Of a stretch of DNA of 64,000 nucleotides, positions 9,862 to 58,976 are shown piece by piece. Under the pieces are notes generated by a model. That model saw only the letters and a list, made by a program, of their open reading frames with translations, was not told where the DNA came from and searched no databases. Source of the stretch: Bdellovibrionota bacterium. Lineage in GTDB: Bacteria > Bdellovibrionota_C > UBA2361 > JAAYZI01. The position numbers were made by a program, and so were the translations under genes. Each line of letters starts with the position of its first letter. Position 1 is the first letter of the stretch. The stretch spans positions 694,157-758,156 of the forward strand of contig JBMNIF010000002.1 of assembly GCA_050950765.1 (NCBI GenBank), written 5' to 3'.

Positions 9862-10270
9862 TCATAGGAAAGATCAATTTTTGAAGACACGCCAGCCCCT
9901 CTAATCTCTTCTTGCTTTATCTGTTAATTATATCACATTCCTCACTTAAGCTATTACAAAGTTACTTTTTTCTTGAACTTTTTCATTGATAAAAAACAGA
10001 TGGTCTGAAGATCCGTCCAATTTTCTATCCTAGCTCCCGTGTGTTGTTTCCATAAATTGCTTTATGCGTAAGCGTTGAACACTTATTGCTACTTGTGTTC
10101 TTAGAAAAAAAGATAAAAATGTTTAGAGTGTTTGTGTTAAAGATAAAGAGGTGCAGATATCTGTTGAGGCTACCTTGAATGACCTTTGGATGATTTGTAA
10201 CTGATTGTAATAATAGTAGTTTTGCTTTTTAGGGATTTACTGGAATATTTATTTTTTATACAGAGAAGGG

Positions 10271-19535: not shown

Positions 19536-19555
19536 AGGGGGAGATAGGAAAAGCT

Positions 19556-21148: not shown

Positions 21149-21150
21149 CG

Positions 21151-36888: not shown

Positions 36889-37950
36889 ATGGATATTACG
36901 CAACTTTTAAAATTTGCTTATCAACAAGATGCATCAGATCTGCACATCAGTGCGGGAGAGTCTCCTATGGTGCGTCTTAACGGTGATATGAAAAAATTGA
37001 AAGTTCCCGAGCTTACTCCAGAAGTGACACACGCCATGATTTACGACATTCTTGGTGATTCGCAAAGAAAAACTTTTGAAGAGTTTAATGATGTTGATTT
37101 CGCCATGCAGATCGGAGATATCGCACGTTTTCGTGTTAATGTTTTTAGGCAACAACGTGGTGTAGCAGCGGTATTTAGAAGGATTCCGACTAAAATTTTA
37201 ACATTGCAGGAACTTGGTATGCCGGAGATCCTTTCTGAAATTACGAGACGCGAGAAAGGCTTAATCTTAGTAACAGGTCCAACAGGGAGTGGTAAATCTA
37301 CAACTTTGGCAGCTATGCTCGATCAGGTGAATAATGAGAGAGAAGGGCATATTTTAACGGTAGAAGACCCGATTGAGTTCGTTCATCATTCAAAGAAGTG
37401 TCTTGTAAATCAACGTGAAGTTGGTGCTCATGCCAACGGTTTTGCGCGAGCTTTGCGCGCAGCATTGCGTGAAGACCCTGATTATATCCTCGTTGGAGAG
37501 TTAAGAGACTTGGAAACGATTCAGTTGGCGTTAACTGCAGCTGAAACAGGACACTTGGTTTTTGGTACGTTACACACTTCGAGTGCTCCGAAAACAGTTG
37601 ATCGTGTTATTGATGTTTTTCCGCCGGAGCAACAAGCACAAGTTAGGGCGATGTTTGCAGAATCAATTCAAGGTGTAATTACACAAACTTTGTGTAAAAA
37701 AATTGGAGGCGGGCGTGTGGCGGCTTTAGAGATATTACTTGGTACAACAGCTATTAGAAACTTGATCAGAGAGGCAAAGATTCATCAGATCCCTAGTATG
37801 ATGCAAACCTCACAAGGGATCGGGATGCAGACTTTGGAGATGCACCTTCTAGATCTGGTAAGTGAGGGAATTATCAGTAAGGAAACTGCTATTGAAAAGA
37901 CAGGTAATGCGCAGATGTTTAAAGAGTTTGAAGATAACGGGATGTTGTAA
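36889..37950 (+). CDS. pilT: Type IV pilus retraction ATPase PilT
   Basis: 353 aa; Walker A GPTGSGKSTT, ...VGELRDLETI..., and the PilT-specific ...GTTAIRNLIREAKIHQIPSMMQT... motif. Confidence 0.9.
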   Translation: MDITQLLKFAYQQDASDLHISAGESPMVRLNGDMKKLKVPELTPEVTHAMIYDILGDSQRKTFEEFNDVDFAMQIGDIARFRVNVFRQQRGVAAVFRRIPTKILTLQELGMPEILSEITRREKGLILVTGPTGSGKSTTLAAMLDQVNNEREGHILTVEDPIEFVHHSKKCLVNQREVGAHANGFARALRAALREDPDYILVGELRDLETIQLALTAAETGHLVFGTLHTSSAPKTVDRVIDVFPPEQQAQVRAMFAESIQGVITQTLCKKIGGGRVAALEILLGTTAIRNLIREAKIHQIPSMMQTSQGIGMQTLEMHLLDLVSEGIISKETAIEKTGNAQMFKEFEDNGML

Positions 37951-38026
37951 AAGTAAATTTGTTAAAAATATAAGATAGGAAAATTATTTTTAATTCAAGA
38001 CGCCGTTTTTTGTAGGAGTTGATCTT

Positions 38027-39190
38027 ATGTTGGATGCAACAAAGTTATTAAGTGTAATGGTTGAGCACGATGCTTCGGATCTCTATCTGACCGTTGATAG
38101 TGCGCCGATGTATCGGATCAATGGGGTGGTGCGTCCCGCAGGTAGTCAGAAGCTTACTGCGTTGGATACAGAAGCGATCGCTAATAGTATTATGAACGAT
38201 AAACAACAGGCGCAGTTTGAAGGGGAAAATGAACAGAATCTCGCACTATATTATTCAACACTTGGACGTTTTAGGGTGAATATCTTTAAGCAGCGTGGGG
38301 TGGTTGGTATAGTTTTTAGGCAGATTAGATCAAACATCCTTTCAATTGATGACTTGGCGTTACCGCAAGTTTTAAAAGATGTGGCGTTAAGTAAACGTGG
38401 CTTAGTTTTGGTAGTTGGAGCAACGGGAAGTGGTAAATCAACGACATTAGCTGCAATTATCGATTATAGGAATGCCAATACCTCAGGGCATATCGTAACG
38501 ATTGAAGATCCGATTGAGTTTGTGCATGAACATAAAAAATGTATCGTTACGCAACGTGAGATCGGGATGGACACCGAAAGTTATTCCGTAGCTTTAAAGA
38601 ATGCCTTACGGCAAGCACCAGATGTGATTCTGATAGGTGAGATTCGAGATCTGGAAACTATGGAAGCAGCGATCGCCTTTGCGGAGACGGGGCACCTCTG
38701 TTTAGCGACGTTGCACAGTAATAACGCTAATCAGGCTATGGAGAGGATTATGAATTTCTTTCCGGCAGAACGGCATAAACAGATCTATTTACAATTAAGT
38801 TTAAACTTACGTGGTATCGTCAGCCAGAGACTCATTCCGACGGTAAATGAAGGACGTGTGGCAGCAGTAGAGATCTTACTGGATAGCCCCCGCGTAAAAG
38901 ATCTAATTCACAAAGAGAAGATTGATGAGATTAAAGATGCTATGGAAAAATCAACTAATCTCGGGATGCAGACCTTTGATCAACACCTTTTTGAATTATA
39001 TAGTGCAGGGCAGATTACACACGAGGCAGCTCTTAGAAATGCAGATTCTGCTAACAACTTACGTTTAAAAATCAAACTTGCTGAAAAGGGTGGCTTCGAA
39101 AAAGAGGAGCCGCAAGCATTTAACACCTCTGAAAAGATGACCACTCCTCTTAGTGACGATGAGGAAGAGCCGTTACAGATAGAATTTTAA
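38027..39190 (+). CDS. pilU: PilT-family ATPase, PilU-like
   Basis: 387 aa paralog directly after pilT; Walker A GATGSGKSTT, ...IGEIRDLETM...; extended acidic C-terminus. Confidence 0.8.
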   Translation: MLDATKLLSVMVEHDASDLYLTVDSAPMYRINGVVRPAGSQKLTALDTEAIANSIMNDKQQAQFEGENEQNLALYYSTLGRFRVNIFKQRGVVGIVFRQIRSNILSIDDLALPQVLKDVALSKRGLVLVVGATGSGKSTTLAAIIDYRNANTSGHIVTIEDPIEFVHEHKKCIVTQREIGMDTESYSVALKNALRQAPDVILIGEIRDLETMEAAIAFAETGHLCLATLHSNNANQAMERIMNFFPAERHKQIYLQLSLNLRGIVSQRLIPTVNEGRVAAVEILLDSPRVKDLIHKEKIDEIKDAMEKSTNLGMQTFDQHLFELYSAGQITHEAALRNADSANNLRLKIKLAEKGGFEKEEPQAFNTSEKMTTPLSDDEEEPLQIEF

Positions 39191-39408: not shown

Positions 39409-40215
39409 ATGAACGGTGTTGAACACGCTACTGCCGGTATTTTAATATTGATGGTTCTGTTTGTTGCACCCCTTCTGGTTTATATCAGAAAAGCGCGACA
39501 AGGAAAAAAGTTCTATGTGCGCAGGGTGGCAGGCATTGATGCTGTTGATGAGGCTGTGGGGCGTGCCGCAGAATTGGGCAGACCCATCTCTTTTTGTTCC
39601 GGTATAACTACAGTTAGCCCCGTGCTTTATGCCTGTTTAGGTGTGCTATTTCATATCGGGCGTAAGGCAGCACAATATAAGTCAAAGTTACTCCTTCCGC
39701 AGATATATCCTGATGTAATGGCTATCGCTGAAGATACCGTTAGAGATGCTTATCGTGAAGAAGGTAGGTTAAGCATCTTTGATCCGTCAAATATACAATT
39801 CCTTTCGGATGAACAGTTTGCTTTTGCCGCTGGTTATAGCGGTATCGTACAGAGAGAAAAAGTTGCAGCAGCTTTTTTGTTTGGAGAGTTTGCTGCTGAA
39901 TCTCTTGTCTTAGCGGAAGCGGGGCAGGCTGTTGGTGCTATGCAGGTAGCAGCTAGTGTCAGCCCTGAACAGGTGCCGTTTTTTATCTGTACCTGTGACT
40001 ATACCTTGATAGGTGAAGAGCTTTATGCAGCATCTGCTTATTTAACACGTGAGCCGGTGCAGGTCGGTAGTCTACTTGGGCAAGATAAAGCCAAGTTGCT
40101 CTTTTTTATTTTAATTATTATCGGTGTTGTGTTGGCAACACTCTCTTCTATCTATCCGCACCTTCAGATTAAAAATATTGATCACTATATCTTGTTAAAT
40201 TGGGGTGAGTTGTAA
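39409..40215 (+). CDS. Hypothetical membrane protein (operon gene 1 of 6)
   Basis: 268 aa; hydrophobic helices at both termini around a soluble middle domain; no recognisable motif. 218 bp downstream of pilU. Confidence 0.5.
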   Translation: MNGVEHATAGILILMVLFVAPLLVYIRKARQGKKFYVRRVAGIDAVDEAVGRAAELGRPISFCSGITTVSPVLYACLGVLFHIGRKAAQYKSKLLLPQIYPDVMAIAEDTVRDAYREEGRLSIFDPSNIQFLSDEQFAFAAGYSGIVQREKVAAAFLFGEFAAESLVLAEAGQAVGAMQVAASVSPEQVPFFICTCDYTLIGEELYAASAYLTREPVQVGSLLGQDKAKLLFFILIIIGVVLATLSSIYPHLQIKNIDHYILLNWGEL

Positions 40216-41257: not shown

Positions 41258-42118
41258 ATGTTACTGCAACGACGTCTCATATATATCTTTGTTTTGCTTG
41301 CACTCTCTCTACCTTTAATTTTTGAATACAGTAGTCCGCCTGCACGTATGCCTGCGGCAGAGGCTGCTTTTAAAAGTGTGGAGGATTTAAAAGTTGCAAC
41401 GGGAGAGATCGCTTTTGTAGCTCTTGATTTTGGACCATCAACAAAAGCTGAAAACGAATCACAGGCGTTAGTTTTAATTGAGCATTTAATGCGTAAAAGG
41501 ATCCCGTTCGCCCTTTTTTCTTATTACTTTCAGGCAGAACCGTTTTTAACTTCTATCCCTGAACAGGTCGTAAATAAACTTGAAAAAGAGTATCCCGATC
41601 AGGTTTGGCGTTATGGTCATGATTGGGTCAATCTCGGATATCGACCAGGTGCGGGAATGTTAATTCAAGCCATTCCGAAAAGTGAAAACTTGGTTCAGCT
41701 TTTTAAAAAGGATGCGCGTGGTAATAGCTTAGAACATATCCCTGCTTTTTCAAAAGTGCGCACAATTAAAGATATTAAGTTACTACTGGAGATCACAAGT
41801 TTAACCGGTGTTTTTGATGTTTATATACAGTATTTTCAAGCAGGAAAATATAAGCCTCCCTTTATTCATGGTGCTACCTCTATCAGTGTTCCAGGGGTTT
41901 TTATTTACCTAGATTCCGGTCAACTTAATGGACTTTTAGAGGGCATCTCCGGAGCTGCTTGGTATTCGGAGCTACTTTCAAAAAAATATAAGGATAGAGC
42001 TGTTGATTCAGCGCAGGTGCTTAATACCTCCTTAGGAATTGCACATCTGGTGATAATCTTTTTAATTCTACTCGGCAACGTTGTTGCATTCGTTGAATTG
42101 TATAGGAGGCGTCAATGA
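41258..42118 (+). CDS. Hypothetical bitopic protein with a probable periplasmic domain (operon gene 3 of 6)
   Basis: 286 aa; strong RBS AAGGAGAGG inside the end of gene 2; N-terminal signal/anchor and C-terminal helix. Confidence 0.55.
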   Translation: MLLQRRLIYIFVLLALSLPLIFEYSSPPARMPAAEAAFKSVEDLKVATGEIAFVALDFGPSTKAENESQALVLIEHLMRKRIPFALFSYYFQAEPFLTSIPEQVVNKLEKEYPDQVWRYGHDWVNLGYRPGAGMLIQAIPKSENLVQLFKKDARGNSLEHIPAFSKVRTIKDIKLLLEITSLTGVFDVYIQYFQAGKYKPPFIHGATSISVPGVFIYLDSGQLNGLLEGISGAAWYSELLSKKYKDRAVDSAQVLNTSLGIAHLVIIFLILLGNVVAFVELYRRRQ

Positions 42119-42831
42119 TTGCTGTCGATTATTGGAATGTGTTGGTGGTGATAGTGGCAGGTTTTGCCACCTTAGCTATCTTTAGCTTGCTGATTAAAGA
42201 AAATCCCGTTTATAGGTTTGTTGAACACCTTTATATCGGTATCGCTGCGGGGTTGGGGATTATTTTAAGTATTAAAACTTTTTTGTGGCGGCAACTATTA
42301 CAGCCGATGCTGGGGCTTGATATTGTGCAGTATCCTGACGGAACTTTTTCAAAAGAATATAATTCGTTGTTGCTGTTATATATATTACCGATGCTCTTTG
42401 GGCTTCTGTATTACTTTATCTATTCAAAAAAATATTCATGGTTAGCTAAAATAGTAATCGGTTTTTCTCTCGGTATGAGTGGTGGATTGGCGTTCAAAGG
42501 CTTTTTTAATAAAATTATGCCGCAAATCAGTAGTAGTTTTAAGCCGCTCGTGGTGCTAAAAGATGGCGCTTTAGATTATTGGCAGAGTTTAGAAAACTGC
42601 ATCTTCGTTTTTACCCTTTTGATAGTGATGTATTATTTCTTTTTCTCTTTTAAACATCGTAAGTTGGGAAGGGGAGTTTCAATCTCAGGACGGTGGCTTT
42701 TAATGATCTGTTTTGGAGCTTTCTTCGGTTCTACGGTAATGGCACGTTTATCGTTGTTAGTTGAACGTTTGCAATTTTTATTAGGACCGTGGGCTAGTGT
42801 TTTAAAAGATGCAGTCGGGGTGTGGTTCTAA
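42115..42831 (+). CDS. Hypothetical polytopic membrane protein (operon gene 4 of 6)
   Basis: 238 aa; ATGA start/stop overlap with gene 3; about 6 predicted helices. Confidence 0.5.
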   Translation: MIAVDYWNVLVVIVAGFATLAIFSLLIKENPVYRFVEHLYIGIAAGLGIILSIKTFLWRQLLQPMLGLDIVQYPDGTFSKEYNSLLLLYILPMLFGLLYYFIYSKKYSWLAKIVIGFSLGMSGGLAFKGFFNKIMPQISSSFKPLVVLKDGALDYWQSLENCIFVFTLLIVMYYFFFSFKHRKLGRGVSISGRWLLMICFGAFFGSTVMARLSLLVERLQFLLGPWASVLKDAVGVWF

Positions 42832-42848
42832 AAAATTATTATTAAAAT

Positions 42849-44705
42849 ATGAAGACTAAAGCCGATGAAATAAAGGTAGTGTTAGTAACTGATTGTGGTT
42901 CTACCACTACAAAAGCACTTCTCTTTGAGGATATTGACGGAGTTTGGCAACAAACTTTTCGTGGTGAAGCTCCTACAACAGTAGAAGACCCCGTAGCGGA
43001 TGTAACAGTTGGTGCAAGAAATGCTTTTAAGGAGATCGAAGAATTAAGTGGTAGAAAAATTTTATCTGAGACTTCTTCTGATTCTCCTTTCCTTGAAAAT
43101 AACGGTTATGGTGATGGCATAGACCTCTATCTTTCGACTAGCTCTGCTGGTGGGGGCTTGCAAATGATAGTGGCAGGTGTCGTGCAATACATGACGACAG
43201 AATCTGCAGAGAGGGCGGCTTTAGGTGCAGGCGCTATCGTGATGGATACTATATCGGCAGATGACGGACGTGAAGATCATGAAAAGATAGAGAAGATTCG
43301 TCATTTACGTCCTGATATTGTGCTTCTAACAGGTGGAGTTGATTCAGGATCAAAGGTACACGTTATTGAAACTGCTGAAATATTGAGAGCGGCACAGCCG
43401 CGCCCCCGTTTTGGAAAAACTTTAAAACTTCCCGTTATTTTTGCAGGTAATAAAGATGCAGCAGTAGAGGTTAAAGAGATCTTAGCTCAGATTGCCGATG
43501 TTTCATGCGTAGAAAATGTGCGTCCGACTTTGGAAATGGAGAACTTAGCTCCTGCTCGCGCTGCTATTCATGAATATTTTTTATCGCATGTAATGAGTCA
43601 TTCTCCAGGCTATGACAAATTATTGCGCTGGACTCCCGTTCCGATTATGCCGACCCCTGCTGCAGTCGGAAATATGATTCAGAGCTACGCAGAAAGTGAA
43701 GACTTACAGGTGCTGTGCGTTGATATCGGTGGTGCTACAACTGATGTTTTTAGCGTTTTTAAAGATCTAAGTGGTGTGCCTGTTTTTAATCGTACCGTTT
43801 CTGCCAATTTAGGGATGAGTTATTCGATAGCAAATGTTTTGATCGAGGCTGGCGGAAAAAATATCGGGCGGTGGTTGTGTTCTGAGGTGAGTGAAACAGA
43901 GATTCACGATCGTCTAAGAAATAAGATGATTCGTCCGACCACTATTCCTCAAACGTTGGAGGATCTGTGGTTGGAGCAGGCAGTTTGTAGGGAAGCGTTA
44001 CGACTTTCTTTGCGACATCATAGGTCTCTAGCAGTGGGGTTAAGTGGTTTAAAAAAACAGAAGGGGATCGCAGATATCTTTTTGCAACATGAAAACCGTT
44101 ATGAATTAGTGAATATGATGAAGCTGGATCTGATAATAGGTTCAGGCGGAGTCTTAAGCCATGCTCCGAATCGGATGGAAGCTGCTCTGATGTTGCTGGA
44201 TGGCTTTAAGCCGGAAGGGCTGACGGAGATAGCGGTTGATTCCATCTTTATGATGCCGCATCTGGGAGTGTTTGCTACGTTACATCCGCAAGCAGCGCGA
44301 GAGATCTTTGTAAATAATTGTTTAGTGCGGATCTGTCATGCGGTTGTGCCGGTTTATTCAGGCAAGAGAGTAAAGGGTAGTTCTTTAGCACGAATTTTTT
44401 GGAACTCCGAGCCGGTAGCTGAAGTAAAAGTTGGAGAGGTGACGTGCCTTACTATGAATCAAGAAAAAGGGGTATTGCGGATTGAGCCTTTTGATAGGCG
44501 TGTTGATGTAGGAAGTGGTACGGGAAAAATTTTAGAAAGAGAGATTACACTTAATCCTCATGGATTACTTCTTGATGGTAGAAATCGTCCGTTAATAATG
44601 CCTGAAGATCCTGCGGAAGCGTTAAGATTTGAGCAAGATATCTACCGAAATCTCGGACTTCTTAAAGGGGATCTTCCTGAAGAATTAGTAACAGAGGAGG
44701 TTTGA
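42849..44705 (+). CDS. Actin-fold (ASKHA) ATPase-like protein, hydantoinase-A/GlmL-like (operon gene 5 of 6)
   Basis: 618 aa; phosphate-1-like ...VVLVTDCGSTTTKALLFED... at the N-terminus and phosphate-2-like ...LCVDIGGATTDVFSVF... near residue 290, the order and spacing expected for actin-fold ATPases. Confidence 0.6.
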   Translation: MKTKADEIKVVLVTDCGSTTTKALLFEDIDGVWQQTFRGEAPTTVEDPVADVTVGARNAFKEIEELSGRKILSETSSDSPFLENNGYGDGIDLYLSTSSAGGGLQMIVAGVVQYMTTESAERAALGAGAIVMDTISADDGREDHEKIEKIRHLRPDIVLLTGGVDSGSKVHVIETAEILRAAQPRPRFGKTLKLPVIFAGNKDAAVEVKEILAQIADVSCVENVRPTLEMENLAPARAAIHEYFLSHVMSHSPGYDKLLRWTPVPIMPTPAAVGNMIQSYAESEDLQVLCVDIGGATTDVFSVFKDLSGVPVFNRTVSANLGMSYSIANVLIEAGGKNIGRWLCSEVSETEIHDRLRNKMIRPTTIPQTLEDLWLEQAVCREALRLSLRHHRSLAVGLSGLKKQKGIADIFLQHENRYELVNMMKLDLIIGSGGVLSHAPNRMEAALMLLDGFKPEGLTEIAVDSIFMMPHLGVFATLHPQAAREIFVNNCLVRICHAVVPVYSGKRVKGSSLARIFWNSEPVAEVKVGEVTCLTMNQEKGVLRIEPFDRRVDVGSGTGKILEREITLNPHGLLLDGRNRPLIMPEDPAEALRFEQDIYRNLGLLKGDLPEELVTEEV

Positions 44706-44706
44706 A

Positions 44707-45831
44707 ATGACACGAGCGTTTGCTCCTGGTTTGCAGATAAAGAGAAAAACAGTTGTCAGACGGTTGCGTGAATTGCCTGTAACGGGCGAGGTCTTGGTTG
44801 AAGTAGGACAATATGTAGAAGCAGATCAAGTTGTGGCACGTGCTTCTTTAGAAGGTGAGCTTTTTATTTTTAGAATTGCTGAACAACTTGGCATTGAAAC
44901 GTTTGAAGTTGTTAATGGTCTTAAGGTTGCAGAAGGTGAAAAGATTAAGAAGGGACAACTTATCTGTGAACATCGAGGACTTTTCGGATTGTTTAACAGT
45001 AGATACTTTGCACCAGAAGATGGTGTTGTAGAGTTTATCTCTAAGCGGACTGGACATCTCGGTGTGCGTGCGCCTAGCGAGATGTTGGATATTGAGGCGT
45101 ATATTTCAGGGAGTGTGGTGGAGGTAGATGTAGGAAAATCTGTTTTGATAGAAACAGAAGCCTCCTTTATTCAAGGTATTTTCGGAGTTGGTGGAGAAAG
45201 ACGGGGTGTTCTGAAATGTTTGTCCGTTCCGTTAGATCATGAATTAACAGATCTTGATATTCCTGATGATTGCGCAGGAAGTGTGCTTGTTGGTGGCACC
45301 AAACCGCAGATCTCAGCCATTACTAAAGCAGCAGAACTTGGAGCTTGTGGTATCGTTACAGGCTCTATCGATGATCAAACTTTAAAAGCTTATTTAGGAT
45401 ACGATCTCGGCATTGCATTAACGGGAGATGAGCAGGTTCCTTTAACGTTAATAGTAACGGAAGGTTTTGGTTTTATTCCGTTAGCTAAGCGCATTATGGA
45501 GATGTGCCGAGAGTTAGAAGGTAGTGCTGTTTCAATAAACGGAGCAACACAGGTTCGGGCGGGTGCTATGCGACCGGAGATAATTATACCGCGTGCAGGT
45601 AATGTTTGTAATTTTGAAGATCTTGATAGTCAGGATCTGGAGAAGGGGCTTACAGAGGGGGCGCGGGTGCGTTTGTTGCGAGTACCGTATTTTGGAAAAC
45701 TTGCCACAGTTTTGGAGTTGCCGCAACAGAAGGAGAGGATTGAAACGGGTGCTTATGCCCGTGTTTTAAGGGTAAAGATCGACCACGCTAGTGTGGTGAC
45801 GATACCGCGAGCTAATGTAGAGTTGCTTTAG
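44707..45831 (+). CDS. Hypothetical beta-rich soluble protein (operon gene 6 of 6)
   Basis: 374 aa; AGGAGG RBS overlapping the stop of gene 5; Gly/Val-rich segments (...VVARASLEGELFIFRI..., ...GARVRLLRVPYFGKLATVLELP...) suggest barrel-type folds; no catalytic motif recognised. Confidence 0.55.
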   Translation: MTRAFAPGLQIKRKTVVRRLRELPVTGEVLVEVGQYVEADQVVARASLEGELFIFRIAEQLGIETFEVVNGLKVAEGEKIKKGQLICEHRGLFGLFNSRYFAPEDGVVEFISKRTGHLGVRAPSEMLDIEAYISGSVVEVDVGKSVLIETEASFIQGIFGVGGERRGVLKCLSVPLDHELTDLDIPDDCAGSVLVGGTKPQISAITKAAELGACGIVTGSIDDQTLKAYLGYDLGIALTGDEQVPLTLIVTEGFGFIPLAKRIMEMCRELEGSAVSINGATQVRAGAMRPEIIIPRAGNVCNFEDLDSQDLEKGLTEGARVRLLRVPYFGKLATVLELPQQKERIETGAYARVLRVKIDHASVVTIPRANVELL

Positions 45832-45971
45832 TTTTTTAGTGTGCACCTGCATATTTTTCTGAATGAATGGTGAATTGTGCAAGTAGTCGTTCTCAAGGCG
45901 ATCGACTATTAACAAATATCTTTTTTCATGGTAGAGATACTTTAAAATATTACTTATTTTATGAGGGAATA

Positions 45972-46997
45972 ATGAATTTAACGGACTCAAAATACAATCA
46001 GTTTAATTTAGTCAAAGAGATGTTGGAAGTTTGTGATATTATTGCAAACTTTAATTTTGAACAAACTGCACAAGTTGCGGCTGAAATAGCAAGTGTTGGT
46101 AAACTTATCTTGACAGGGGAGGGGTCGAGTCGCATTTTTCCTGCAAAAAGTGCGATTTATAAAGCATTAAAAAAAGCTCTTGATGTTACCATCATAACGG
46201 ACGGCAGCTATCAAGCTATGGAGTATGATTTAAGTAAGTACGTTGTCTTTGGTGCTAGTAATAGTGGTCAAACAAAAGAATTGATCACCCTCTTTTCTGC
46301 TTTAGTGGAGAAAGGGCACAACAGACGTTATGGTTTGACTTCACATCACGATTCAAAGTTGGAAACTGTTTCAAATAAGTGCTTTGTGCTCTCTTGCGGA
46401 TCTGAAAATGCGGTTGCTGCAACAAAGAGTGTCTTTGAACAAGCTCTTTTCTATCACAGTTTGCTTTTTAGTGGCTCTCATTGTGATGCAAAGTGTAATA
46501 ATATGCTTAAAAATAGAGAAGCAGCAGTGGCTGCTGCTAGAGCTGTTTTGACGATGCAGATAGATCCTGAAATTATTTCTGCTTTGGCTGAAGCTCCGAT
46601 GGTATATTTTGCAGGTAGGAATGATGGTGTTGCTGAAGAGCTCACCCTTAAAAATAATGAAATAACCCGTAAAAAGAGTGATTTTCTTGAAGGAACCTAT
46701 GCGCTGCACGGCGTAGAAGAGGTTATGCGTAAGGGAGAGGCTGTAATCTTTGTTAATCCGTTTCCGACAGAGTATCAGAAGATGAAAGAGATCTTTGAAG
46801 ATGCAGTGGGGGCTAAGGTTATTGTAATCTCTACTGAAGATACGCCATTTGCAACAATTAAAATTCCTCAAGTGGAAGGGTATCAACACTTCTTACAACT
46901 TTTAGCTGGATGGAATATCTTGGTTGATGTTGGTGTAGCAACAGATATCAACTTGGATAAACCACAACGTGCCAGAAAGGTTGGTAATGCTATGTAA
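45972..46997 (+). CDS. SIS-domain sugar-phosphate isomerase/deaminase (AgaS/GlmS-C-like)
   Basis: Two SIS-like repeats (...LILTGEGSSRIFPAKSA... and ...VVFGASNSGQTKELI...). Start set at the ATG with a GAGGGA RBS; track ORF begins at 45867. Confidence 0.75.
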   Translation: MNLTDSKYNQFNLVKEMLEVCDIIANFNFEQTAQVAAEIASVGKLILTGEGSSRIFPAKSAIYKALKKALDVTIITDGSYQAMEYDLSKYVVFGASNSGQTKELITLFSALVEKGHNRRYGLTSHHDSKLETVSNKCFVLSCGSENAVAATKSVFEQALFYHSLLFSGSHCDAKCNNMLKNREAAVAAARAVLTMQIDPEIISALAEAPMVYFAGRNDGVAEELTLKNNEITRKKSDFLEGTYALHGVEEVMRKGEAVIFVNPFPTEYQKMKEIFEDAVGAKVIVISTEDTPFATIKIPQVEGYQHFLQLLAGWNILVDVGVATDINLDKPQRARKVGNAM

Positions 46998-47030
46998 ATG
47001 TTGTGCAATTACCGTTTAGTGGTTGTTTTT

Positions 47031-47062
47031 AGCGGTGTTTTTTCAGCACCGCTCTTGTTTTA
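47031..47062 (+). terminator. Intrinsic terminator after the SIS-domain gene
   Basis: AGCGGTG-ttttttcag-CACCGCT (perfect 7-bp stem) followed by a T-rich tract (CTTGTTTTA), 34 bp past the stop codon. Confidence 0.55.
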
Positions 47063-47329
47063 AGTAAAAGTTATTAAAATTTGCTAGGGATCGTTTTTAG
47101 GTTTAAAATACCTCTGTTCTCGTAATAGCTTCATTTTAGTCCGTTCTTTTTTAGTAGAGGTGGTTGGTAGTCAAGAAAAAAAGTTTGTTTCTTCTTAAAA
47201 GTAAAGTTATCTCTTTTTAGTAGAGATTGAAAAACTTTTGAGAAGGAACAGCTGTGTAACGGTTGTTTCTTGTTTTAACGGTTTCTTTACAGAGAGAATA
47301 AAACATACAAAACGAAAGAGAGGCTTATT

Positions 47330-48145
47330 ATGGCGATCTATCGTAAGAGATCTTCCGACGGTACTGTTCTTCGAACGTCGCAGATCTCAAAATTTTTCCC
47401 TAACTGGCAAGGGGAAGAAGAGGCTTGGCTTTTCATTGCTCCACATGACGATGATATCGTTCTTGGAGCAGGAAAAACTTTGTTGGCGGCTCTTGAAGAA
47501 GGAGTCGATGTTCACTGCGCTATTACAACTGATGGCGCAATGGGGTATTGCTCTCTGGAGGTGCGGGATACCATTTCCGAAGTTCGTGAAAAAGAGTGCT
47601 TTAACTCTTTTAGGGAGCTGGGGGTGGAAGATAAAAATATCTATTTCCTGCACTTCCCAGATTGCAACTTGGTTCCGTTTCAAGGACGTTTCCGTGACGT
47701 AACAGGACACCCTTCCGAGATTGCGGGAGCAGGAGGTTTGCAGAACGCTTATACGCATCTTCTGCGAAAAGTGCGACCGACCCGTGTTTTTATCCCGACG
47801 AGTACGGATTTACACCCTGATCATAGGATCGTAAACAGTGAGGTGCAGATCTCTCTCTTCCATGCAGAAGGTGGTATCTGGCCGGAGCTTGGAGCTGCTA
47901 CAAACGTTCCGTCTCTTTATGAATACGCTACCTATTGCGACTTTCCAGAGGCTCCGCAATTGTGTATCGAGATTCCCGCCGAGATTTTGGAGAAGAAGTG
48001 GCGTGCTTTACGGTGTTATGAGAGTCAAACTCAGATTGAAAGTCTGATTGAATCTCAGAAGCAAAGTGGCTCTCTTGAATATATTCGAGAGGTGCCTTTT
48101 AACCTCTATTCGCCGCAACAATACGCTCCCCTGTTTAAGTCATAA
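47330..48145 (+). CDS. PIG-L/LmbE-family N-acetylglucosaminyl deacetylase
   Basis: ...LFIAPHDDDIVLGAG... (metal-binding HxDD motif) and ...STDLHPDHRIV... (HPDH) are characteristic of LmbE-like deacetylases. Confidence 0.8.
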   Translation: MAIYRKRSSDGTVLRTSQISKFFPNWQGEEEAWLFIAPHDDDIVLGAGKTLLAALEEGVDVHCAITTDGAMGYCSLEVRDTISEVREKECFNSFRELGVEDKNIYFLHFPDCNLVPFQGRFRDVTGHPSEIAGAGGLQNAYTHLLRKVRPTRVFIPTSTDLHPDHRIVNSEVQISLFHAEGGIWPELGAATNVPSLYEYATYCDFPEAPQLCIEIPAEILEKKWRALRCYESQTQIESLIESQKQSGSLEYIREVPFNLYSPQQYAPLFKS

Positions 48146-48348
48146 CGTTACAGCTATGGCAAATACTGTTTTTTTAAAAGTAGGGGCTTATAGTTTTTTA
48201 ATTATAAGCCCCTGCTTAGACACGGCTTTTCCTTTTTCCATTTCGCGTTGCCTAAACTTCCTTTATTGAGGTTCATTTCCCTGTTGTGATTTTTTCCTGT
48301 TTCAGTAAGATCTGTATGTATCAAAAAATCGGGAAATAAGGATTAAAT

Positions 48349-49149
48349 ATGAATAAGGTAAATACTGTCACAGAGCATAAAAGAGGCTTTTTAATTGATA
48401 TGGATGGGGTAATTTATCGTGGATCGACGATGATTCCAGGTGCAGATGTCTTTATTAATACCTTAAAGGAAAAAAATATCCCCTTTCTCTTTTTAACTAA
48501 TAACAGTCGTTCGACCAGAAGAGATCTAGCAAATCGCTTAAATGAGTTGGGTATTAAGGTTTCAGAGCAACATATCTTTACTAGTGCTATGGCCACAGCG
48601 CAGTTTCTTGCAAAACAGAAGCCGAACGGAACAGCATATTTAATCGGAGAAGGTGGTTTAATTTTAGCTCTACATGAAAACGGTTACAGCATCGTTGATA
48701 GAAATCCGGATTACGTGGTGGTAGGCGAGGGCAGAACTTTAACTTTAGAGATAGTAGAGAAGGCGATAGATTTTATTATCGACGGATCAAAGTTAATTGC
48801 TACCAATATGGATCCAGCACCACAGTCAAAGGGTTGGATGAAGCCTGGTGTCGGAGCTATTACGGCGATGCTTGAGGAAGCAACGCATAAGAAGGCGTTT
48901 TGTGTCGGAAAGCCAAGCCCGATTATGTTACGAGCGGCAAGAAAGAGGTTAGGGTTGCAGACTGCTGAAACAGTAATGATTGGTGACACCATGTCTACTG
49001 ATATTTTAGGTGGTGTCCAGATGGGGTGCACAACGGTGCTGGTCTTAAGTGGTATTACTTCACGTGCTGATATGGCGAACTATGCTTATAGACCTGATAT
49101 CGTCGTTGACTCCATCGCCGATCCGGAAATTATGGCTATGGTTGAGTAG
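48349..49149 (+). CDS. HAD-superfamily subfamily IIA hydrolase (NagD-like sugar phosphatase)
   Basis: HAD motif I ...FLIDMDGVIYRG..., motif II ...FLTNNS..., C-terminal ...MIGDTMSTDILGG.... Confidence 0.85.
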   Translation: MNKVNTVTEHKRGFLIDMDGVIYRGSTMIPGADVFINTLKEKNIPFLFLTNNSRSTRRDLANRLNELGIKVSEQHIFTSAMATAQFLAKQKPNGTAYLIGEGGLILALHENGYSIVDRNPDYVVVGEGRTLTLEIVEKAIDFIIDGSKLIATNMDPAPQSKGWMKPGVGAITAMLEEATHKKAFCVGKPSPIMLRAARKRLGLQTAETVMIGDTMSTDILGGVQMGCTTVLVLSGITSRADMANYAYRPDIVVDSIADPEIMAMVE

Positions 49150-49159
49150 TAATCTTGAT

Positions 49160-51244
49160 TCAGCGGAGCATCTTTGCTGCGAGAGTTCTAAAGTGAGCGA
49201 CTGTTTCCTCTGTATCTTCAAATTCAGACTTTACCTTTGCTATTAAGGAAAAAGCATGAGCTAGATTTTCGCCATTACCATTAAAAGGATTTTTTTCCGT
49301 GAGCCCTGTTTTAACAAAATCAGCTTGCTTATTTTCATCGTTAGGGACTCCAAGTAGAAGAGCGATATTAAAACCGCAACAATATGCTTCGTTAAGAAGC
49401 TCCTCTTTTTGGGTAGTATCTTCTTTGTCAATCTCTTGTGTAGCTTTTGTATATAATAACTCTCCAAGGTTATATAAACATCTTCTATAATCAGTGGTTA
49501 CTTTTGTATGTTTAACCATACCAGGAAGGCGCTCTGGAAATTGGTTATCTATGGTTCGTGTGGTGTCTGTTCCGAAAGTGTTGTGTAACACCGTGCGTAA
49601 AATTCCAATAGCAAGATTGTGTTGTCTTCTAGCTTCTTCTTCAGGATTTTCAAGAGGCAGTTTTTTCCCTCCTTTGCTGTTTCTGTATGTATCCAAAAGT
49701 TCCGGAGTTGTCTTTAAACAGGTAGTAGTTAGATCTAAGATCGTTTTCAGATCATTTTTATTGCAGTAATAAGCACATTCTAAATATTTTTGAGCCAGCA
49801 ATTTATCCTTGGATACTAAGCCTATCCAACGAAAAGCTTTCGAGACGAATGCTCCAAGATTTTTCGGTACCTTTTGGGCGAATTCCTCAGGTGTGCTTGT
49901 TATAAGTTGTTTGTAACTCTTAAAGCCTACACTTTCTAGGATTTTCCAAGCAGAAGCATTGGCTTGTTTAAAATATTCCCTTTTTTTTGGATCGGTCTCC
50001 TCGGCATTACGATACGCCTCTCCGAAACCGATCAGGTTTTTAAATTCATTTTGCAACTCCTCTTCCAGTTTTTGCATTCTAAATATTTTGATCCGGTTTG
50101 CAAGGTCGTTAAAGAAAACGGCAGTTTCTTCTGTGTCTTTAAATACAGACCTTATTTCTGCTATTAAGGAAAGAGCGTAAGCAAGATGCTTGCTTTTACC
50201 ATTAAAAGGGTTTTCTTTTCCTAGTTCTTCCGTAATGAAATCATTTAGTTTGCTAGAGTCGTTAGGAGCTCCAAGTAGAAGAGCAGTATTAACACCGCAG
50301 CAATATGCTTCATCAAGGAGAGACCTTCTTATTTCCAAGTAGTCTTGTTGAATTTCTTTTTGTGCTTTGTTAAGTAATAATTTTCCAAGATTGTTTAAAC
50401 ATTGTCTACAATACGCGTTTATTTTCATATCACCAAATATGTCTGGATCTATCTTTTCTATATCTGAAAATTGTTTATCTATGGTTTGTGTGGTGTCTAT
50501 TTTGAAGGTATCGTTCAATGTTGTGCGTAAAATGTTAATAGCAAGTCTATGTTGCCTCCTGATTTCCTCTCCAATATCTCTAACATTTTTAAAACGTGGG
50601 TCTGTTTTGCCACGTTTTTTATATTCATCAAATTGATTTTTTGTTGTATTTGCATAGAGATCAGTTAGATTTAAGATCGTTTTTAAGTCATTTTTATTAC
50701 AATAATAAGCGCATTCTAAAAATCTTGCAGCGTCCAGATAATAGTGTTGCCCCTGTGAGTTCTTGTAGGATAAGCCTATCCGATAGAAAGCTTCTGCAGC
50801 GAACTTCTTAAAATCATCCGGTATCTTTCTAGCGATTTTTTGAGGTCTGCTTTTTTTAATCTGTTGATAGTTTTTTATATCTAAAATCCTCAAAATTTTC
50901 CAAGCACAATCACTAGCTTGTTTAAAGCTTTTCTCCTTCATGAAACTTGCCATGCGGGCAGATTCCTTTTTTAACTTCTTCAGTATCTGCTCTCTTGATT
51001 TTTTAGTAAGTTTTTCTTGTGACTTTTGTTGTTTTAGATCGTCTAGAATTCCTCGTAGTGGAGCAGCAGGAGCAGAAGATCCTTGTGATGTAGCAGAGCC
51101 AGAAGTAAAAAATGGTGTGTCTAAGTTTGAATCTCTTTTTGCGCTTGGATCTCTGTTTGTTTTTGGGGCAGTGGAAGAGTCGTTTTGCGGTGTTGCTCCT
51201 TTTGCGCTCGGATTTGTACCTTTTTCTAAGCTTTCGTACGTCAT
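49160..51244 (-). CDS. Hypothetical protein with two tandem ~290-aa Cys-containing repeats and a low-complexity N-terminus
   Basis: 694 aa. Residues ~95-390 and ~400-694 are clearly homologous (LECAYYCNKNDLKTIL, RRQH(R/N)LAI(N/G)ILRT, LDEAYCCGVNTALLLGAPND / LNEAYCCGFNIALLLGVPND, EKNPFNG, FKDTEETA / FEDTEETV). The first ~90 residues are Ser/Thr/Pro/Lys-rich with no signal peptide. The stop lies 10 bp from the convergent NagD-like stop. Confidence 0.6.
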   Translation of the reverse strand: MTYESLEKGTNPSAKGATPQNDSSTAPKTNRDPSAKRDSNLDTPFFTSGSATSQGSSAPAAPLRGILDDLKQQKSQEKLTKKSREQILKKLKKESARMASFMKEKSFKQASDCAWKILRILDIKNYQQIKKSRPQKIARKIPDDFKKFAAEAFYRIGLSYKNSQGQHYYLDAARFLECAYYCNKNDLKTILNLTDLYANTTKNQFDEYKKRGKTDPRFKNVRDIGEEIRRQHRLAINILRTTLNDTFKIDTTQTIDKQFSDIEKIDPDIFGDMKINAYCRQCLNNLGKLLLNKAQKEIQQDYLEIRRSLLDEAYCCGVNTALLLGAPNDSSKLNDFITEELGKENPFNGKSKHLAYALSLIAEIRSVFKDTEETAVFFNDLANRIKIFRMQKLEEELQNEFKNLIGFGEAYRNAEETDPKKREYFKQANASAWKILESVGFKSYKQLITSTPEEFAQKVPKNLGAFVSKAFRWIGLVSKDKLLAQKYLECAYYCNKNDLKTILDLTTTCLKTTPELLDTYRNSKGGKKLPLENPEEEARRQHNLAIGILRTVLHNTFGTDTTRTIDNQFPERLPGMVKHTKVTTDYRRCLYNLGELLYTKATQEIDKEDTTQKEELLNEAYCCGFNIALLLGVPNDENKQADFVKTGLTEKNPFNGNGENLAHAFSLIAKVKSEFEDTEETVAHFRTLAAKMLR

Positions 51245-55635: not shown

Positions 55636-55981
55636 TGTTCGGCGAATCCTAACAGAAAGAGAGGAAATGCTACAAGCGGTTACGCAAATAAAACAAACCT
55701 TGTTTTATTTTTTTACTATACAAAATCTTCACCCCTTCGGAAAGGCGTTAAGTTGGAAAGCGCATCTGTCGATCTCTTAAGACAGTTCTTGTAGTGCCCT
55801 GAGTTTAAAGACTCAATTAGGGGATTTCTGTGTAAGAACCGAGATAGAAGGCAAAACGGAACTTTAGGCTACGTTAAAGCATAGTTGTGCAGAGTGTCCC
55901 TGTTTTAAGTCCGTTTTTTAAGTATCTACTTTAAAGCGGGAGCAATCTGCGGCTGTTCAGTTTTTGTTAAGGAGCGTGAAT

Positions 55982-57676
55982 ATGCAATCACGAGTTGGTG
56001 ATCTGCTGGTTCGTGCGGGGTTGTTGACCGAAGATCAGTTAAATAAAGCCAAAGAGTCACAAGCAGCTACGGGTGGGTTATTGGCTAGCGCCATCATTGC
56101 GCTTGGTGCGATCACTGAACAAGATTTCGCAGATCTTCTGAGTGAACATTATGCTGTGCCTATCGTTACCCTTGACGATTATCAGATTGAAGATAGTGCC
56201 GTAAACCTGATTCCGCAAAACCTTGCTACAAAGTACGGTTTAATGCCAGTTTTAAAGGAACAGAGCACTTTAACCATAGCCATGATTGATCCGTCAAATG
56301 TTGTGGCATTAAACGATATAAAATTTATTACAGGCTTAGATGTTCGTGCAGTTATTGCACTTGAAAGTGATATCAAAGCAAAACAGGAAAAATATTACGA
56401 AGACCATATTTCATACAGCAGTATCATTGATGATATTGAAAGTGAAGACTTTGAAGTCGTTGCTAACAATGAAGAGCTTGATTTAAGAGAGCTTGAAAAG
56501 GCAACGGAGGATGCGCCTGTTGTAAAACTTGTTAACGCTATCTTGATGGATGCCATTAAGAAAGGTGCTTCCGATATTCATCTGGAGCCTTATGAAAAGG
56601 TATTTAGAGTTAGATTCCGTATCGATGGTGTGTTGTATGAAATTATGAAACCTCCGATGAAGTTGAAGAATGCTATTACTTCACGCCTAAAAATTATGGC
56701 TGATCTCGACATTGCAGAACGGAGGTTACCACAAGATGGACGTATTAAATTAAAGATCGGTTCTAATAAAGAGATGGATTTCCGTGTAAACGTTCTACCT
56801 ACTTTATTTGGGGAGAAGGTAGTTTTACGTTTACTTGATAAGTCTAATTTGCAACTTGATATGACGAAGTTGGGCTTCTTTCCAGAACAGCTGGAGCATT
56901 TTAAAGATGCCATCAGTAAACCACACGGCATGGTGCTTGTAACGGGACCAACGGGTTCAGGTAAGACTACAACACTTTATTCGGCGCTAGCGGATCTAAA
57001 TAAAGTAGGCACCAATATTAGTACAGCAGAAGATCCTGTTGAATTTAATCTAACAGGTATTAATCAAGCTCAGATGCACGATGAGATCGGATTTAATTTT
57101 GCTTCAGCACTACGTGCATTTTTGCGACAAGATCCTGATGTAGTTATGGTTGGTGAGATTAGAGATTATGAAACTGCTGAAATAGGCATTAAAGCTTCCT
57201 TAACGGGTCACTTGGTGCTCTCAACGTTACATACTAATGACGCACCATCGACTATTAGCCGTCTGTTAAATATGGGTGTGGAACCGTTTTTGGTAGCATC
57301 TTCCGTTAATCTAATTGTGGCGCAACGTTTAGCGCGACGTGTTTGTAGTCAGTGTGCACAGGAAGTGCACTTAAATCCTGAATTGTTGGTAAATATCGGT
57401 ATCCCTGCGGAAGAGGCTAGGCATATTAAGGTAATGCAAGGGAGTGGTTGTGAAGCGTGTTCAGGGACGGGGTATAAAGGGCGTGTTGCTTTATACGAAG
57501 TGATGCCGATGATGGAGAGTATTAGAGAGTTAATCCTTAATGGTGCTTCTACAACAGAGCTAAAAAGGGAGTGTATCAAACAAGGTATGCTGACTTTAAG
57601 AGCTTCCGCTTTATTAAGATTAAAAGAAGGTATGACAAGTTTGGAGGAGGTTCTCCGTGTTACAGCAGCTGATTAA
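55982..57676 (+). CDS. pilB: Type IV pilus assembly ATPase PilB (GspE family)
   Basis: N-terminal GspE-N/MshEN-like domain (...VGDLLVRAGLLTEDQLNKAKESQ...), Walker A GPTGSGKTTT, and a tetracysteine motif (CSQC...CEAC). Start set at the ATG with AGGAG RBS; the track ORF begins 18 nt upstream at a non-ATG codon. Confidence 0.9.
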   Translation: MQSRVGDLLVRAGLLTEDQLNKAKESQAATGGLLASAIIALGAITEQDFADLLSEHYAVPIVTLDDYQIEDSAVNLIPQNLATKYGLMPVLKEQSTLTIAMIDPSNVVALNDIKFITGLDVRAVIALESDIKAKQEKYYEDHISYSSIIDDIESEDFEVVANNEELDLRELEKATEDAPVVKLVNAILMDAIKKGASDIHLEPYEKVFRVRFRIDGVLYEIMKPPMKLKNAITSRLKIMADLDIAERRLPQDGRIKLKIGSNKEMDFRVNVLPTLFGEKVVLRLLDKSNLQLDMTKLGFFPEQLEHFKDAISKPHGMVLVTGPTGSGKTTTLYSALADLNKVGTNISTAEDPVEFNLTGINQAQMHDEIGFNFASALRAFLRQDPDVVMVGEIRDYETAEIGIKASLTGHLVLSTLHTNDAPSTISRLLNMGVEPFLVASSVNLIVAQRLARRVCSQCAQEVHLNPELLVNIGIPAEEARHIKVMQGSGCEACSGTGYKGRVALYEVMPMMESIRELILNGASTTELKRECIKQGMLTLRASALLRLKEGMTSLEEVLRVTAAD

Positions 57677-57713
57677 GGCAGATTGTTTTTGTGTGAATTT
57701 GGAGAGGTAAAAA

Positions 57714-58931
57714 ATGGCACTTTATGTTTGGGAGGGAAAAAACAGCGCTGGTGTTACTGTTAAAGGTGAGATTGAAGCGAAAACACCGCAAGCTGTTTTT
57801 AATGCTTTGCGTGCGCAGCAGATTACCCCAATAGCTAGTAAGATTAAGGAAAAGGGGAAGGGGCTTGATATGGAGATCAAGCTTCCTGGCATGGGACCGA
57901 AGGTGCGCGATAAAGATGTCGTTGTTTTTACAAGACAGTTTGCAACCATGATTGATGCGGGACTTCCTCTGGTGCAGGCTTTGCACATATTAGGTGCAAA
58001 TCATGAGAATAAAGCTTTTAAAAAAGTTTTACTGGGGGTTAAAGATAGTGTAGAAGCTGGCGGAACTTTAGCTGAAGGACTGAGTAAATATCCGAAGGCG
58101 TTTGATGAGCTTTTTGTAAATATGGTTAAAGCTGGTGAAAGTGGTGGTATCTTGGATATCATCCTTGAAAGACTCTCAGTGCAACTTGAAAAAAGTATGA
58201 AGTTAAAGCGTGAAGTTAAGACAGCTATGATCTATCCTTCTGTTATTGTTGCCACTGCTATTATCGTAACTGTTGTCTTGTTAGTCTTCGTTATTCCGAC
58301 CTTTGCTGAGATGTTTGAAGACTTCGGATCTGCCCTACCGTTACCAACACGAATAGTGATGATGATCTCTGATTTCTTTATAAATAACGCTCTTATTATC
58401 TTCCCTGGAGCGATAGCGCTTTTTTTCCTATTTATGTTTTTTGCAAAAACGCCACGTGGAAAGGAAGTGCTTCATCCTGTCGCCTTAAAGTCACCTGTTT
58501 TTGGTGAGTTGATTAGAAAAGTTTCTGTGGCGCGTTTTAGTAGAACGTTAAGTACTATGCTCAGTTCAGGTGTGCCGATTTTAGATGCACTTAGTATCTG
58601 TGCCAAAACTGCAGGGAATATCGTGGTGGAGCGTGATATCAAGACAGCTCGTGTTGCGATCTCTGAAGGAAAAACAATGGGAGAGCCGCTTTCAAAATCT
58701 GCTGTTTTTCCACCGATGGTTACTTCAATGATAATGGTTGGAGAGTCGACGGGTGCTGTCGATGCTATGTTAGCAAAGATTGCAGACTTTTATGAAGATG
58801 AAGTTGATACAGCTGTTACAGGCTTAAAACAGTTGATAGAGCCTATAATTATCCTCGTCTTAGGTGTGATTATCGGTGGTTTGGTTGTGGCGATGTATCT
58901 ACCGATCTTCAAACTGGGTAGCGTTGTGTAA
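57714..58931 (+). CDS. pilC: Type IV pilus inner-membrane platform protein PilC (GspF family)
   Basis: 405 aa with two GspF-type repeats and three hydrophobic segments; directly follows pilB. Confidence 0.9.
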   Translation: MALYVWEGKNSAGVTVKGEIEAKTPQAVFNALRAQQITPIASKIKEKGKGLDMEIKLPGMGPKVRDKDVVVFTRQFATMIDAGLPLVQALHILGANHENKAFKKVLLGVKDSVEAGGTLAEGLSKYPKAFDELFVNMVKAGESGGILDIILERLSVQLEKSMKLKREVKTAMIYPSVIVATAIIVTVVLLVFVIPTFAEMFEDFGSALPLPTRIVMMISDFFINNALIIFPGAIALFFLFMFFAKTPRGKEVLHPVALKSPVFGELIRKVSVARFSRTLSTMLSSGVPILDALSICAKTAGNIVVERDIKTARVAISEGKTMGEPLSKSAVFPPMVTSMIMVGESTGAVDAMLAKIADFYEDEVDTAVTGLKQLIEPIIILVLGVIIGGLVVAMYLPIFKLGSVV

Positions 58932-58976
58932 AAGATATTATTTGAAAGATATGAGTTTATAAAAGTTGTAGTTGAG

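Follow-up and report, generated by a model that had tools for sequence, protein, structure and literature searches.

A long GlmL/MutL-family predicted ATPase encoded with a beta-rich partner and four membrane proteins in a Bdellovibrionota genome

We describe here a set of six genes on a 64-kb stretch of DNA from a Bdellovibrionota bacterium; this whole stretch is called the window, and all positions refer to it unless a related locus is named. The set is centred on gene 5, which encodes a predicted ATPase of the acetate and sugar kinases/Hsc70/actin (ASKHA) fold, and on gene 6, which encodes a beta-rich protein. Gene 5 had been described in an earlier note as embedded among membrane proteins, and four membrane-protein genes (genes 1 to 4) indeed lie directly upstream on the same strand. 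The spacings from gene 1 to gene 5 are -11, 6, -4 and 17 nucleotides (nt), and a single base lies between the TGA stop codon of gene 5 and the ATG of gene 6. The genes, with the motifs and domains of the gene 5 and gene 6 products, are as follows.

39409-40215 (+): gene 1, DUF6754 membrane protein, 268 amino acids (aa); PF20539, 301 bits
40205-41251 (+): gene 2, membrane protein with about six transmembrane helices, 348 aa counted from GTG 40205
41258-42118 (+): gene 3, 286 aa, a domain of about 230 aa flanked on either side by one transmembrane helix (hydropathy, alignment A4)
42115-42831 (+): gene 4, membrane protein with 5-6 transmembrane helices, 238 aa (alignment A5, 59% mean column identity)
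42849-44705 (+): gene 5, long-form GlmL/MutL-family predicted ASKHA ATPase, 618 aa
42888-42917 (+): gene 5 phosphate-1 loop TDCGSTTTKA, residues 14-23
43134-43166 (+): gene 5 glycine-rich loop STSSAGGGLQM, residues 96-106
43719-43751 (+): gene 5 phosphate-2 loop VDIGGATTDVF, residues 291-301
44136-44162 (+): gene 5 adenosine motif IGSGGVLSH, residues 430-438, the third ASKHA signature
44319-44705 (+): gene 5 C-terminal extension, residues 491-618, comprising a beta-rich domain, a helix (588-601) and a disordered tail
44568-44594 (+): gene 5 invariant motif D576-x-R578-x-R580-P, within the C-terminal extension
44707-45831 (+): gene 6, partner of gene 5, 374 aa
44734-45099 (+): gene 6 N-terminal domain, a predicted barrel-sandwich hybrid (biotinyl/lipoyl-like, NqrA-like), about residues 10-131
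45109-45594 (+): gene 6 middle domain, a predicted "swivelling" beta/beta/alpha domain, about residues 135-296
45652-45831 (+): gene 6 C-terminal domain, predicted KOW/SH3-like, about residues 316-374

Gene 5 and its partner, gene 6

The gene 5 product matches the Pfam family PF13941 (MutL/GlmL) over its full length, from residue 11 to residue 490 and from model position 1 to 449 of 450, with 414.1 bits (E 8.9e-124) against a gathering threshold of 27 bits, whereas no PilM or FtsA family of Pfam or NCBIfam is matched. The likeness to the GlmL (MutL) branch rather than to PilM and FtsA, which the earlier note had pointed out, is thus borne out. Since the nucleotide-binding motifs lie inside this full-length match, they are not chance matches. 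Their conservation was read from two sets of homologues, namely an alignment of 51 homologues that are 64-74% identical, and 37 full-length homologues from metagenomic loci that share 45-68% identity with gene 5. Residues T14, D15, C16, G17, S18, T20, T21, K22 and D292 through D299 are invariant in the first set. Regarding the metagenomic homologues, the phosphate-1 residues D15, G17, S18, T19-T21 and K22 are found in all 37, and the counts for the other loops are made over 38 sequences: G294-T298 of phosphate-2 and G433, G434, L436, S437 and H438 of the adenosine motif are present in 38/38, and D292 and D299 in 37/38. The glycine-rich loop STSSAGGGLQM, which may contribute to the active site, is unchanged in all 38 apart from one S/T swap at residue 96. 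The three motifs that define an ASKHA protein, phosphate-1 (15-22), phosphate-2 (292-299) and adenosine (431-434), are therefore present in order and conserved, including the two loops that the note had seen near the N-terminus and around residue 290. The closest homologues, also 64-74% identical, are named from Bdellovibrionota, Oligoflexia and Dadabacteria, and gene 5 as well as gene 6 match more than 8000 clusters built at 90% identity. The system is thus both abundant and unusually well conserved.

An AlphaFold2 model of gene 5, built on the 51-homologue alignment, was obtained with a mean predicted local distance difference test score (pLDDT) of 84.5 and a predicted template modelling score of 0.83. 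Foldseek comparison of this model with the PDB returned exclusively proteins of the actin/Hsp70/sugar-kinase fold, the best matches being acetone carboxylase beta (5svc_B, 5m45_B), N-methylhydantoinase (9h03) and acetophenone carboxylase (5l9w), followed at lower rank by Hsp70s, PilM, FtsA and sugar kinases. The confident model thus agrees with the actin-like fold that had been put forward. It should be noted that the Pfam MutL model and the canonical 461-aa GlmL both end near residue 487-490 of gene 5. The protein had been said to be longer than typical members, and the 128 residues beyond this point form an extension that is confidently modelled, with a pLDDT of about 91-96 at residues 511-600. 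Judged from its sequence, gene 5 is predicted to be a catalytically competent ASKHA ATPase of a distinct long subfamily of GlmL/MutL; it adds to a known family a new variant, long and associated with a membrane system.

The AlphaFold2 model of gene 6 (pLDDT 88.4) is beta-rich, as the note had anticipated for the partner protein, and contains three domains, whose boundaries (10-131, 135-296 and 316-374) are probable placements made from the order of secondary-structure elements in the model. The middle domain, which holds the invariant loops QGIFGxGGE and GATQVRAGAxRPE, finds its structural matches among swivelling folds (scores: RraA 9.1, rifampin phosphotransferase 8.6, phosphotransferase system Enzyme I 8.1, pyruvate kinase C-domain 7.9), and the C-terminal domain among KOW/SH3-like folds (Spt5 8.3, NusG, eL27, PsaE and NdhS). 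Three Pfam models related to the first domain score below their thresholds: RnfC_N (19.4 against 25.6 bits), NQRA_N (12.6 against 25 bits) and Biotin_lipoyl (21.2 against 22.1 bits). In an alignment of 63 homologues the invariant residues of gene 6 are chiefly Gly, Arg, Glu, Pro and Thr; none of them is a His, Cys, Lys or Ser, and no Lys is near-invariant, so that a role as phosphohistidine, biotin or lipoyl carrier is unlikely. Two histidines, H89 and H117, are conserved in at least 90% of the sequences and are sited in the N-terminal domain. An exhaustive profile search with the gene 6 family retrieved 3259 cluster representatives (clustered at 50% identity) at E<=1e-3, 930 of them at E<=1e-30. 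Six variants (P0472, P0484, P0486, P0495, P0511 and P0530) are about 450-475 aa long, some 80 aa above the usual length, and match the profile in two stretches, which suggests a duplicated N-terminal barrel-sandwich region.

Among 85 related loci, 42 have gene 5 directly upstream of gene 6, and the two frames mostly overlap or are less than 20 nt apart. In two lineages both are fused into a single protein, P0427/P0532 (995 aa) and P0501/P0542 (1003 aa), which in both cases begins with a full MutL domain and ends with the gene 6 match; P0427 is 52% identical to gene 5. The cluster of the 995-aa fusion has at least eight members on independent contigs and that of the 1003-aa fusion has four, including HNW34126.1 from a Ca. 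Ozemobacteraceae metagenome-assembled genome. Because each fusion has multiple members, those of 995 aa on independent contigs, they are not assembly artefacts. Ca. Ozemobacteraceae is one of the two lineages; the other, to which the related locus L086 belongs, has a Por_Secre_tail protein of the type IX secretion system (T9SS) nearby:

L086, 10001-12988: fusion of gene 5 and gene 6

By the Rosetta-stone argument, these fused sequences support a physical complex of the two proteins, and we propose gene 6 as the obligate partner of gene 5.

The membrane proteins and the wider distribution of the system

Hydropathy places one transmembrane helix at each end of gene 1; the roughly 200 aa enclosed by the two helices form an acidic, highly conserved domain, and the mean column identity in alignment A6 is 64%. 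By the positive-inside rule, this domain would be cytoplasmic; the gene 1 homologue of L086 carries an N-terminal fn3-like extension, which fits with an N-terminus outside. The start of gene 2 is ambiguous, as the longest open reading frame begins at GTG 40205 (348 aa, overlapping gene 1 by 11 nt) and the public gene call on identical contigs begins at GTG 40217 (344 aa, 1 nt past the gene 1 stop). Its product has a variable helical insert at about residues 100-240, probably periplasmic, and a conserved C-terminal tail, RMWLSIESESF (alignment A3), which is placed in the cytoplasm; the 232-aa orthologue of L086 lacks the insert. The same positive-inside rule suggests that both ends of gene 3 are inside and its large domain periplasmic. 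L086 also encodes orthologues of gene 3 (320 bits) and gene 4 (275 bits). No Pfam or NCBIfam family was found for genes 2, 3 and 4, relaxed Pfam scans included, profile searches revealed no PDB relative of any of the four membrane proteins, and hhalign detected no paralogy between genes 1 and 3 or between genes 2 and 4.

The six genes are colinear in L002 (a 704-kb contig), in L003 (Dadabacteria), in L004 and L005 (assemblies of about 4 Mb) and on several metagenome contigs. The order gene 5, gene 6, gene 1, gene 2, gene 3, gene 4 occurs in L053, L066, L072 and L078, and in L086 a small protein precedes the gene 5-gene 6 fusion, which is followed by genes 1, 2, 3 and 4. Gene order thus differs among the phyla, namely Bdellovibrionota, Dadabacteria and the T9SS-bearing lineage. 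The small protein accompanies the system in 17 loci; it has 85-140 aa, a motif PAIFFLEMxKPL, often a charged tail, and no Pfam family. Examples are the following.

L002, 6283-6561: small protein
L004, 4326-4628: small protein
L065, 7657-8046: small protein
L086, 9642-9971: small protein

In L001, L002 (4398-6280), L003, L006, L008 and L023, which are of Bdellovibrionota or Dadabacteria type, the system is preceded by two coiled-coil genes encoding a protein of about 317 aa with an N-terminal transmembrane helix and a protein of about 310 aa with a signal peptide. Neither was detected in the window by tblastn or hidden Markov model (HMM) search, and pilT and a pilU-like gene fill their position.

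Gene 6 is also found apart from gene 5 and the membrane genes. In Armatimonadota/Fimbriimonadales the unlinked gene 6 stands beside tatC, located upstream, and a response-regulator/histidine-kinase pair. An OmpR-type response regulator follows directly 3' of it in 12 loci, with a PAS histidine kinase next in 8 of the 12:

L014, L015, L016, L018, L021, L025, L039, L044, L050, L076, L079, L084: OmpR-type response regulator 3' of gene 6

Either lpxB or a GT-C (PMT/TMEM260-like) glycosyltransferase gene lies directly upstream in L031, L037 and L051 and in L058, L062 and L082, and further neighbours include era, sufBD and prfA/prmC. These neighbours are too lineage-restricted and varied to give a function.

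In the window itself, type IV pilus genes flank the region at 36889-39190 and 55964-60965; they comprise pilT, a pilU-like gene, pilB (T2SSE+MshEN) and pilC (T2SSF), together with a fused protein made of a PilS-like domain with six transmembrane helices, a PAS domain and a sigma-54 activator. Directly 3' of gene 6 (45867-49149) are genes for a SIS-domain protein (GlmS C-terminal-like), a PIG-L deacetylase (BshB-like) and a NagD-type phosphatase of the haloacid dehalogenase family. This trio looks amino-sugar-related, and other loci do not preserve its association with the system. On the minus strand, 49160-51244 encodes a 694-aa protein with no Pfam match, made of two tandem copies of about 300 aa with repeat blocks such as KYLECAYYCNKNDLKTIL and NEAYCCG.N.ALLLG.PND. 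An ATP-binding cassette (ABC) ATPase, an ABC-2 permease, an ABC_transp_aux (GldG-like) protein and a DUF4340 protein, encoded at 18040-22554, resemble the gliding-associated GldA/F/G transporter. The GC content falls to 31-32% at 6001-10000, compared to about 41%, and this stretch, which contains a DDE transposase gene (7307-8980, minus strand) and a truncated N6-adenine methylase fragment (9105-9680, minus strand), is probably an insertion element or remnant island.

Proposed role and alternative explanations

With moderate confidence, we favour the reading that gene 5 and gene 6, located in the cytoplasm and driven by nucleotide, are one module of an inner-membrane complex whose other subunits are encoded by genes 1 to 4. 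With the domain of gene 1 placed in the cytoplasm and that of gene 3 in the periplasm, the gene set appears laid out as a trans-membrane device with a cytoplasmic ATPase. The membrane part would consist of gene 1 with its large cytoplasmic domain, the polytopic gene 2 and gene 4 proteins, and gene 3 with its large periplasmic domain, and would be joined in most other genomes by the small 85-140 aa protein. Binding and hydrolysis of ATP would close and open the two ASKHA lobes of gene 5, and this movement could be relayed through the C-terminal beta domain of gene 5 and the modules of gene 6 to the cytoplasmic domain of gene 1 and to the loops and tail of genes 2 and 4. In this way conformational work would be done across the membrane, to transport or assemble an envelope component. 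Hsp70, the diol-dehydratase reactivases (DdrA/EutA) and the hydantoinase-type ASKHA enzymes serve as analogues for this mechanism. Regarding the substrate, neighbours of envelope type are found occasionally (PpiD/SurA-like proteins, LpxB, GT-C transferases, CdsA/YegS and TatC) and give a weak hint that it belongs to the envelope.

Several observations weigh against this reading. Gene 6 has neither gene 5 nor the membrane genes next to it in at least 24 loci with at least 2 kb of upstream sequence, and the unit is therefore not always an operon. The small seventh protein is absent from the whole window by tblastn and HMM search. No clue to a substrate was obtained: relaxed Pfam and PDB profile searches gave no transporter-family signature for genes 1 to 4, these proteins contain no clearly membrane-embedded charged residues, and no riboswitch or leader was found in this region of the window or in eight related loci. 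The data establish the family and the fold of gene 5, the conservation of its motifs, its fusion to gene 6 and the recurrent linkage to the membrane genes. The ATPase activity of gene 5 is predicted from its motifs, and we infer that gene 5 and gene 6 dock on the membrane subunits, that energy flows in the direction given above and that the substrate is related to the envelope.

The public record that is 100% identical to gene 5, MGI6524693.1, is labelled "glutamate mutase L [Bdellovibrionota bacterium]", and one may ask whether gene 5 is a genuine GlmL/MutL, a chaperone reactivating a mutase that depends on coenzyme B12 (glutamate mutase, ornithine or lysine aminomutase). MutL/GlmL has been described as a chaperone in glutamate mutase reactivation (PMC4682846), and glutamate mutase has been counted among the families of the actin superfamily (PMC5597319). 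Besides its PF13941 membership, gene 5 is 30% identical, across residues 8-487, to the 461-aa GlmL of Peptoclostridium acidaminophilum, with all nucleotide-binding loops in common. However, it falls below all three NCBIfam cut-offs, with 222.5 bits against 475 for the GlmL equivalog NF040745, 220 against 600 for the Or-4 model and 180 against 204 for TIGR01319 (glmL_fam). Canonical glmL genes, found by tblastn on plasmids and chromids, are 29-33% identical and none aligns past residue 494 of gene 5, and the additional 128-aa C-terminal domain, the conserved partner and the membrane genes are absent with canonical GlmL. The gene of P. acidaminophilum sits in a glmS-glmL-glmE-methylaspartase-adenosyltransferase operon, whereas no glmS, glmE, mutase, methylaspartase or cobalamin gene was found among the open reading frames of at least 180 aa in the window, and none of these is a recurrent neighbour in the 85 related loci. 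Given the missed cut-offs, the absent mutase neighbours and the different architecture, we rejected the canonical reactivase, which we regard as extremely improbable; the public name is misleading and is not to be taken as a function.

An enzymatic role deserves more weight, although we consider it unlikely: gene 5 and gene 6 would be a soluble ATP-dependent enzyme of the hydantoinase/oxoprolinase/acetone-carboxylase type that activates a small molecule, and genes 1 to 4 its importer or exporter. Such a role agrees with the acetone carboxylase beta, N-methylhydantoinase and acetophenone carboxylase structures at the top of the Foldseek list, with weak matches of the fused homologues to Hydantoinase_A, at the phosphate-2 region, and to Hydant_A_N (20-24 bits against cut-offs of 22.9 and 25.2, no stretch passing alone), and with the combination in gene 6 of a biotinyl-like domain and a swivelling domain, a type of domain that serves as phosphoryl shuttle in phosphoenolpyruvate (PEP)-utilising enzymes. 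Yet a partner of the hydantoinase-B/HyuB type is encoded in none of the loci, gene 6 lacks the invariant His, Cys, Lys or Ser that would carry phosphate, biotin or lipoate, and genes 1 to 4 match no transporter family, two of them being single-domain proteins with a transmembrane helix at each end, unlike a simple permease. The linkage could also reflect nothing more than the conserved synteny of housekeeping genes that have no functional relation, gene 5 and gene 6 doing one job and genes 1 to 4 another, as the frequent occurrence of gene 6 in varied housekeeping arrays (tatC, prfA/prmC, lpxB, era, GT-C glycosyltransferases) might suggest. But the set of families persists through at least three gene orders, a fusion and distant phyla, with overlapping or near-abutting frames; chance synteny is thereby contradicted, and we hold this explanation to be improbable. 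Similarly, it is quite improbable that gene 5 serves the type IV pilus apparatus, whose genes surround it in the window, as a membrane-associated scaffold like PilM/FtsA or as an actin-like polymer, since its family is MutL rather than PilM or FtsA, the operon lacks pilN, pilO, pilP, pilQ and pilin genes, and in other phyla the system sits amid unrelated housekeeping genes. Linkage to PilT was observed in only 4 of about 86 loci, and the pilus link is judged incidental for this reason.

Taken together, these results support the interpretation of the earlier note. ASKHA ATPases act as kinases, chaperones, reactivases, electron-transfer activators and cytoskeletal or scaffold proteins; to our knowledge, none powers a dedicated membrane complex with several subunits, and we found no such case in the searchable literature. 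Full-text searches, whose coverage is incomplete, returned no paper on DUF6754, PF13941, TIGR01319 or GlmL as an ASKHA protein, and for "glutamate mutase L" there was a single paper, on an unrelated subject. More tentatively, and with more doubt than conviction, the six genes and the small seventh protein might represent an undescribed class of inner-membrane machine, powered by an ASKHA protein and not by an ABC, P-type, AAA+ or rotary ATPase, which many diderm lineages, largely uncultured ones, would use for trans-membrane transport or for the biogenesis of the envelope. In that case, the name "glutamate mutase L" on public homologues would be a systematic mis-annotation, extending over the more than 8000 clusters that match gene 5, and the role of the system could reveal a new principle of energy coupling at the bacterial inner membrane. 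Three of the four membrane subunits are outside Pfam and none has a solved relative; the natural gene 5-gene 6 fusion and the compact seven-gene locus offer ready constructs for expression and cryo-electron microscopy.

Comparison with known systems

Canonical GlmL and gene 5 belong to the same Pfam family and share an ASKHA core with an internal alpha/beta region and the loops DxGST.TK, SSAxGGL, GG.DGG, D.GGATTDV and GGxL, the DFGSTYTK phosphate-1 and SSAAGGL glycine loops of the former corresponding to those of gene 5. They differ in length, about 460 aa against 618 aa, because gene 5 has an added C-terminal beta domain, and in that gene 5 comes always with gene 6 and usually with the four membrane proteins. 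The hydantoinase A, acetone carboxylase beta, acetophenone carboxylase and N-methylhydantoinase group is the closest by structure (Foldseek E 6e-10 to 2e-8), with low TM-scores (template modelling scores) of about 0.3, as the superposition is restricted to the ASKHA core; gene 5 has no match to the Pfam Hydantoinase_A/oxoprolinase families (PF01968, PF05378) at E<=0.01. The reactivases and activators DdrA, EutA and RACo share no sequence-family membership with gene 5, and no B12 enzyme or corrinoid protein is encoded nearby; here the swivelling domain resides in a separate protein, gene 6, together with the barrel-sandwich hybrid and KOW domains. PilM and FtsA are from a different sequence family and are alike at the level of the fold only, gene 5 being twice as large with fully conserved catalytic loops, in an operon without PilNOPQ or divisome genes. 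A defence system was also considered and rejected, as PADLOC gave no significant match for genes 1 to 6 and the context is of the housekeeping type.

Regarding gene 6, the barrel-sandwich hybrid of its N-terminal domain is common to NqrA, RnfC and BCCP. Gene 6 would resemble NqrA in being a peripheral subunit, free of cofactors, in a membrane complex of six subunits, a parallel that is architectural only. The Pfam scores are below threshold, genes 1 to 4 are unlike the Nqr/Rnf membrane subunits, and no flavin or Fe-S motifs are present. Biotinyl and lipoyl carriers differ from gene 6, which has no conserved modifiable lysine. Likewise, the phosphohistidine domain of PEP-utilising enzymes, RraA and the pyruvate kinase C-domain are set apart from gene 6 by its lack of an invariant histidine, and gene 6 is therefore not a phospho-carrier. 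As a whole, the complex matches no known kind of system among those tested.

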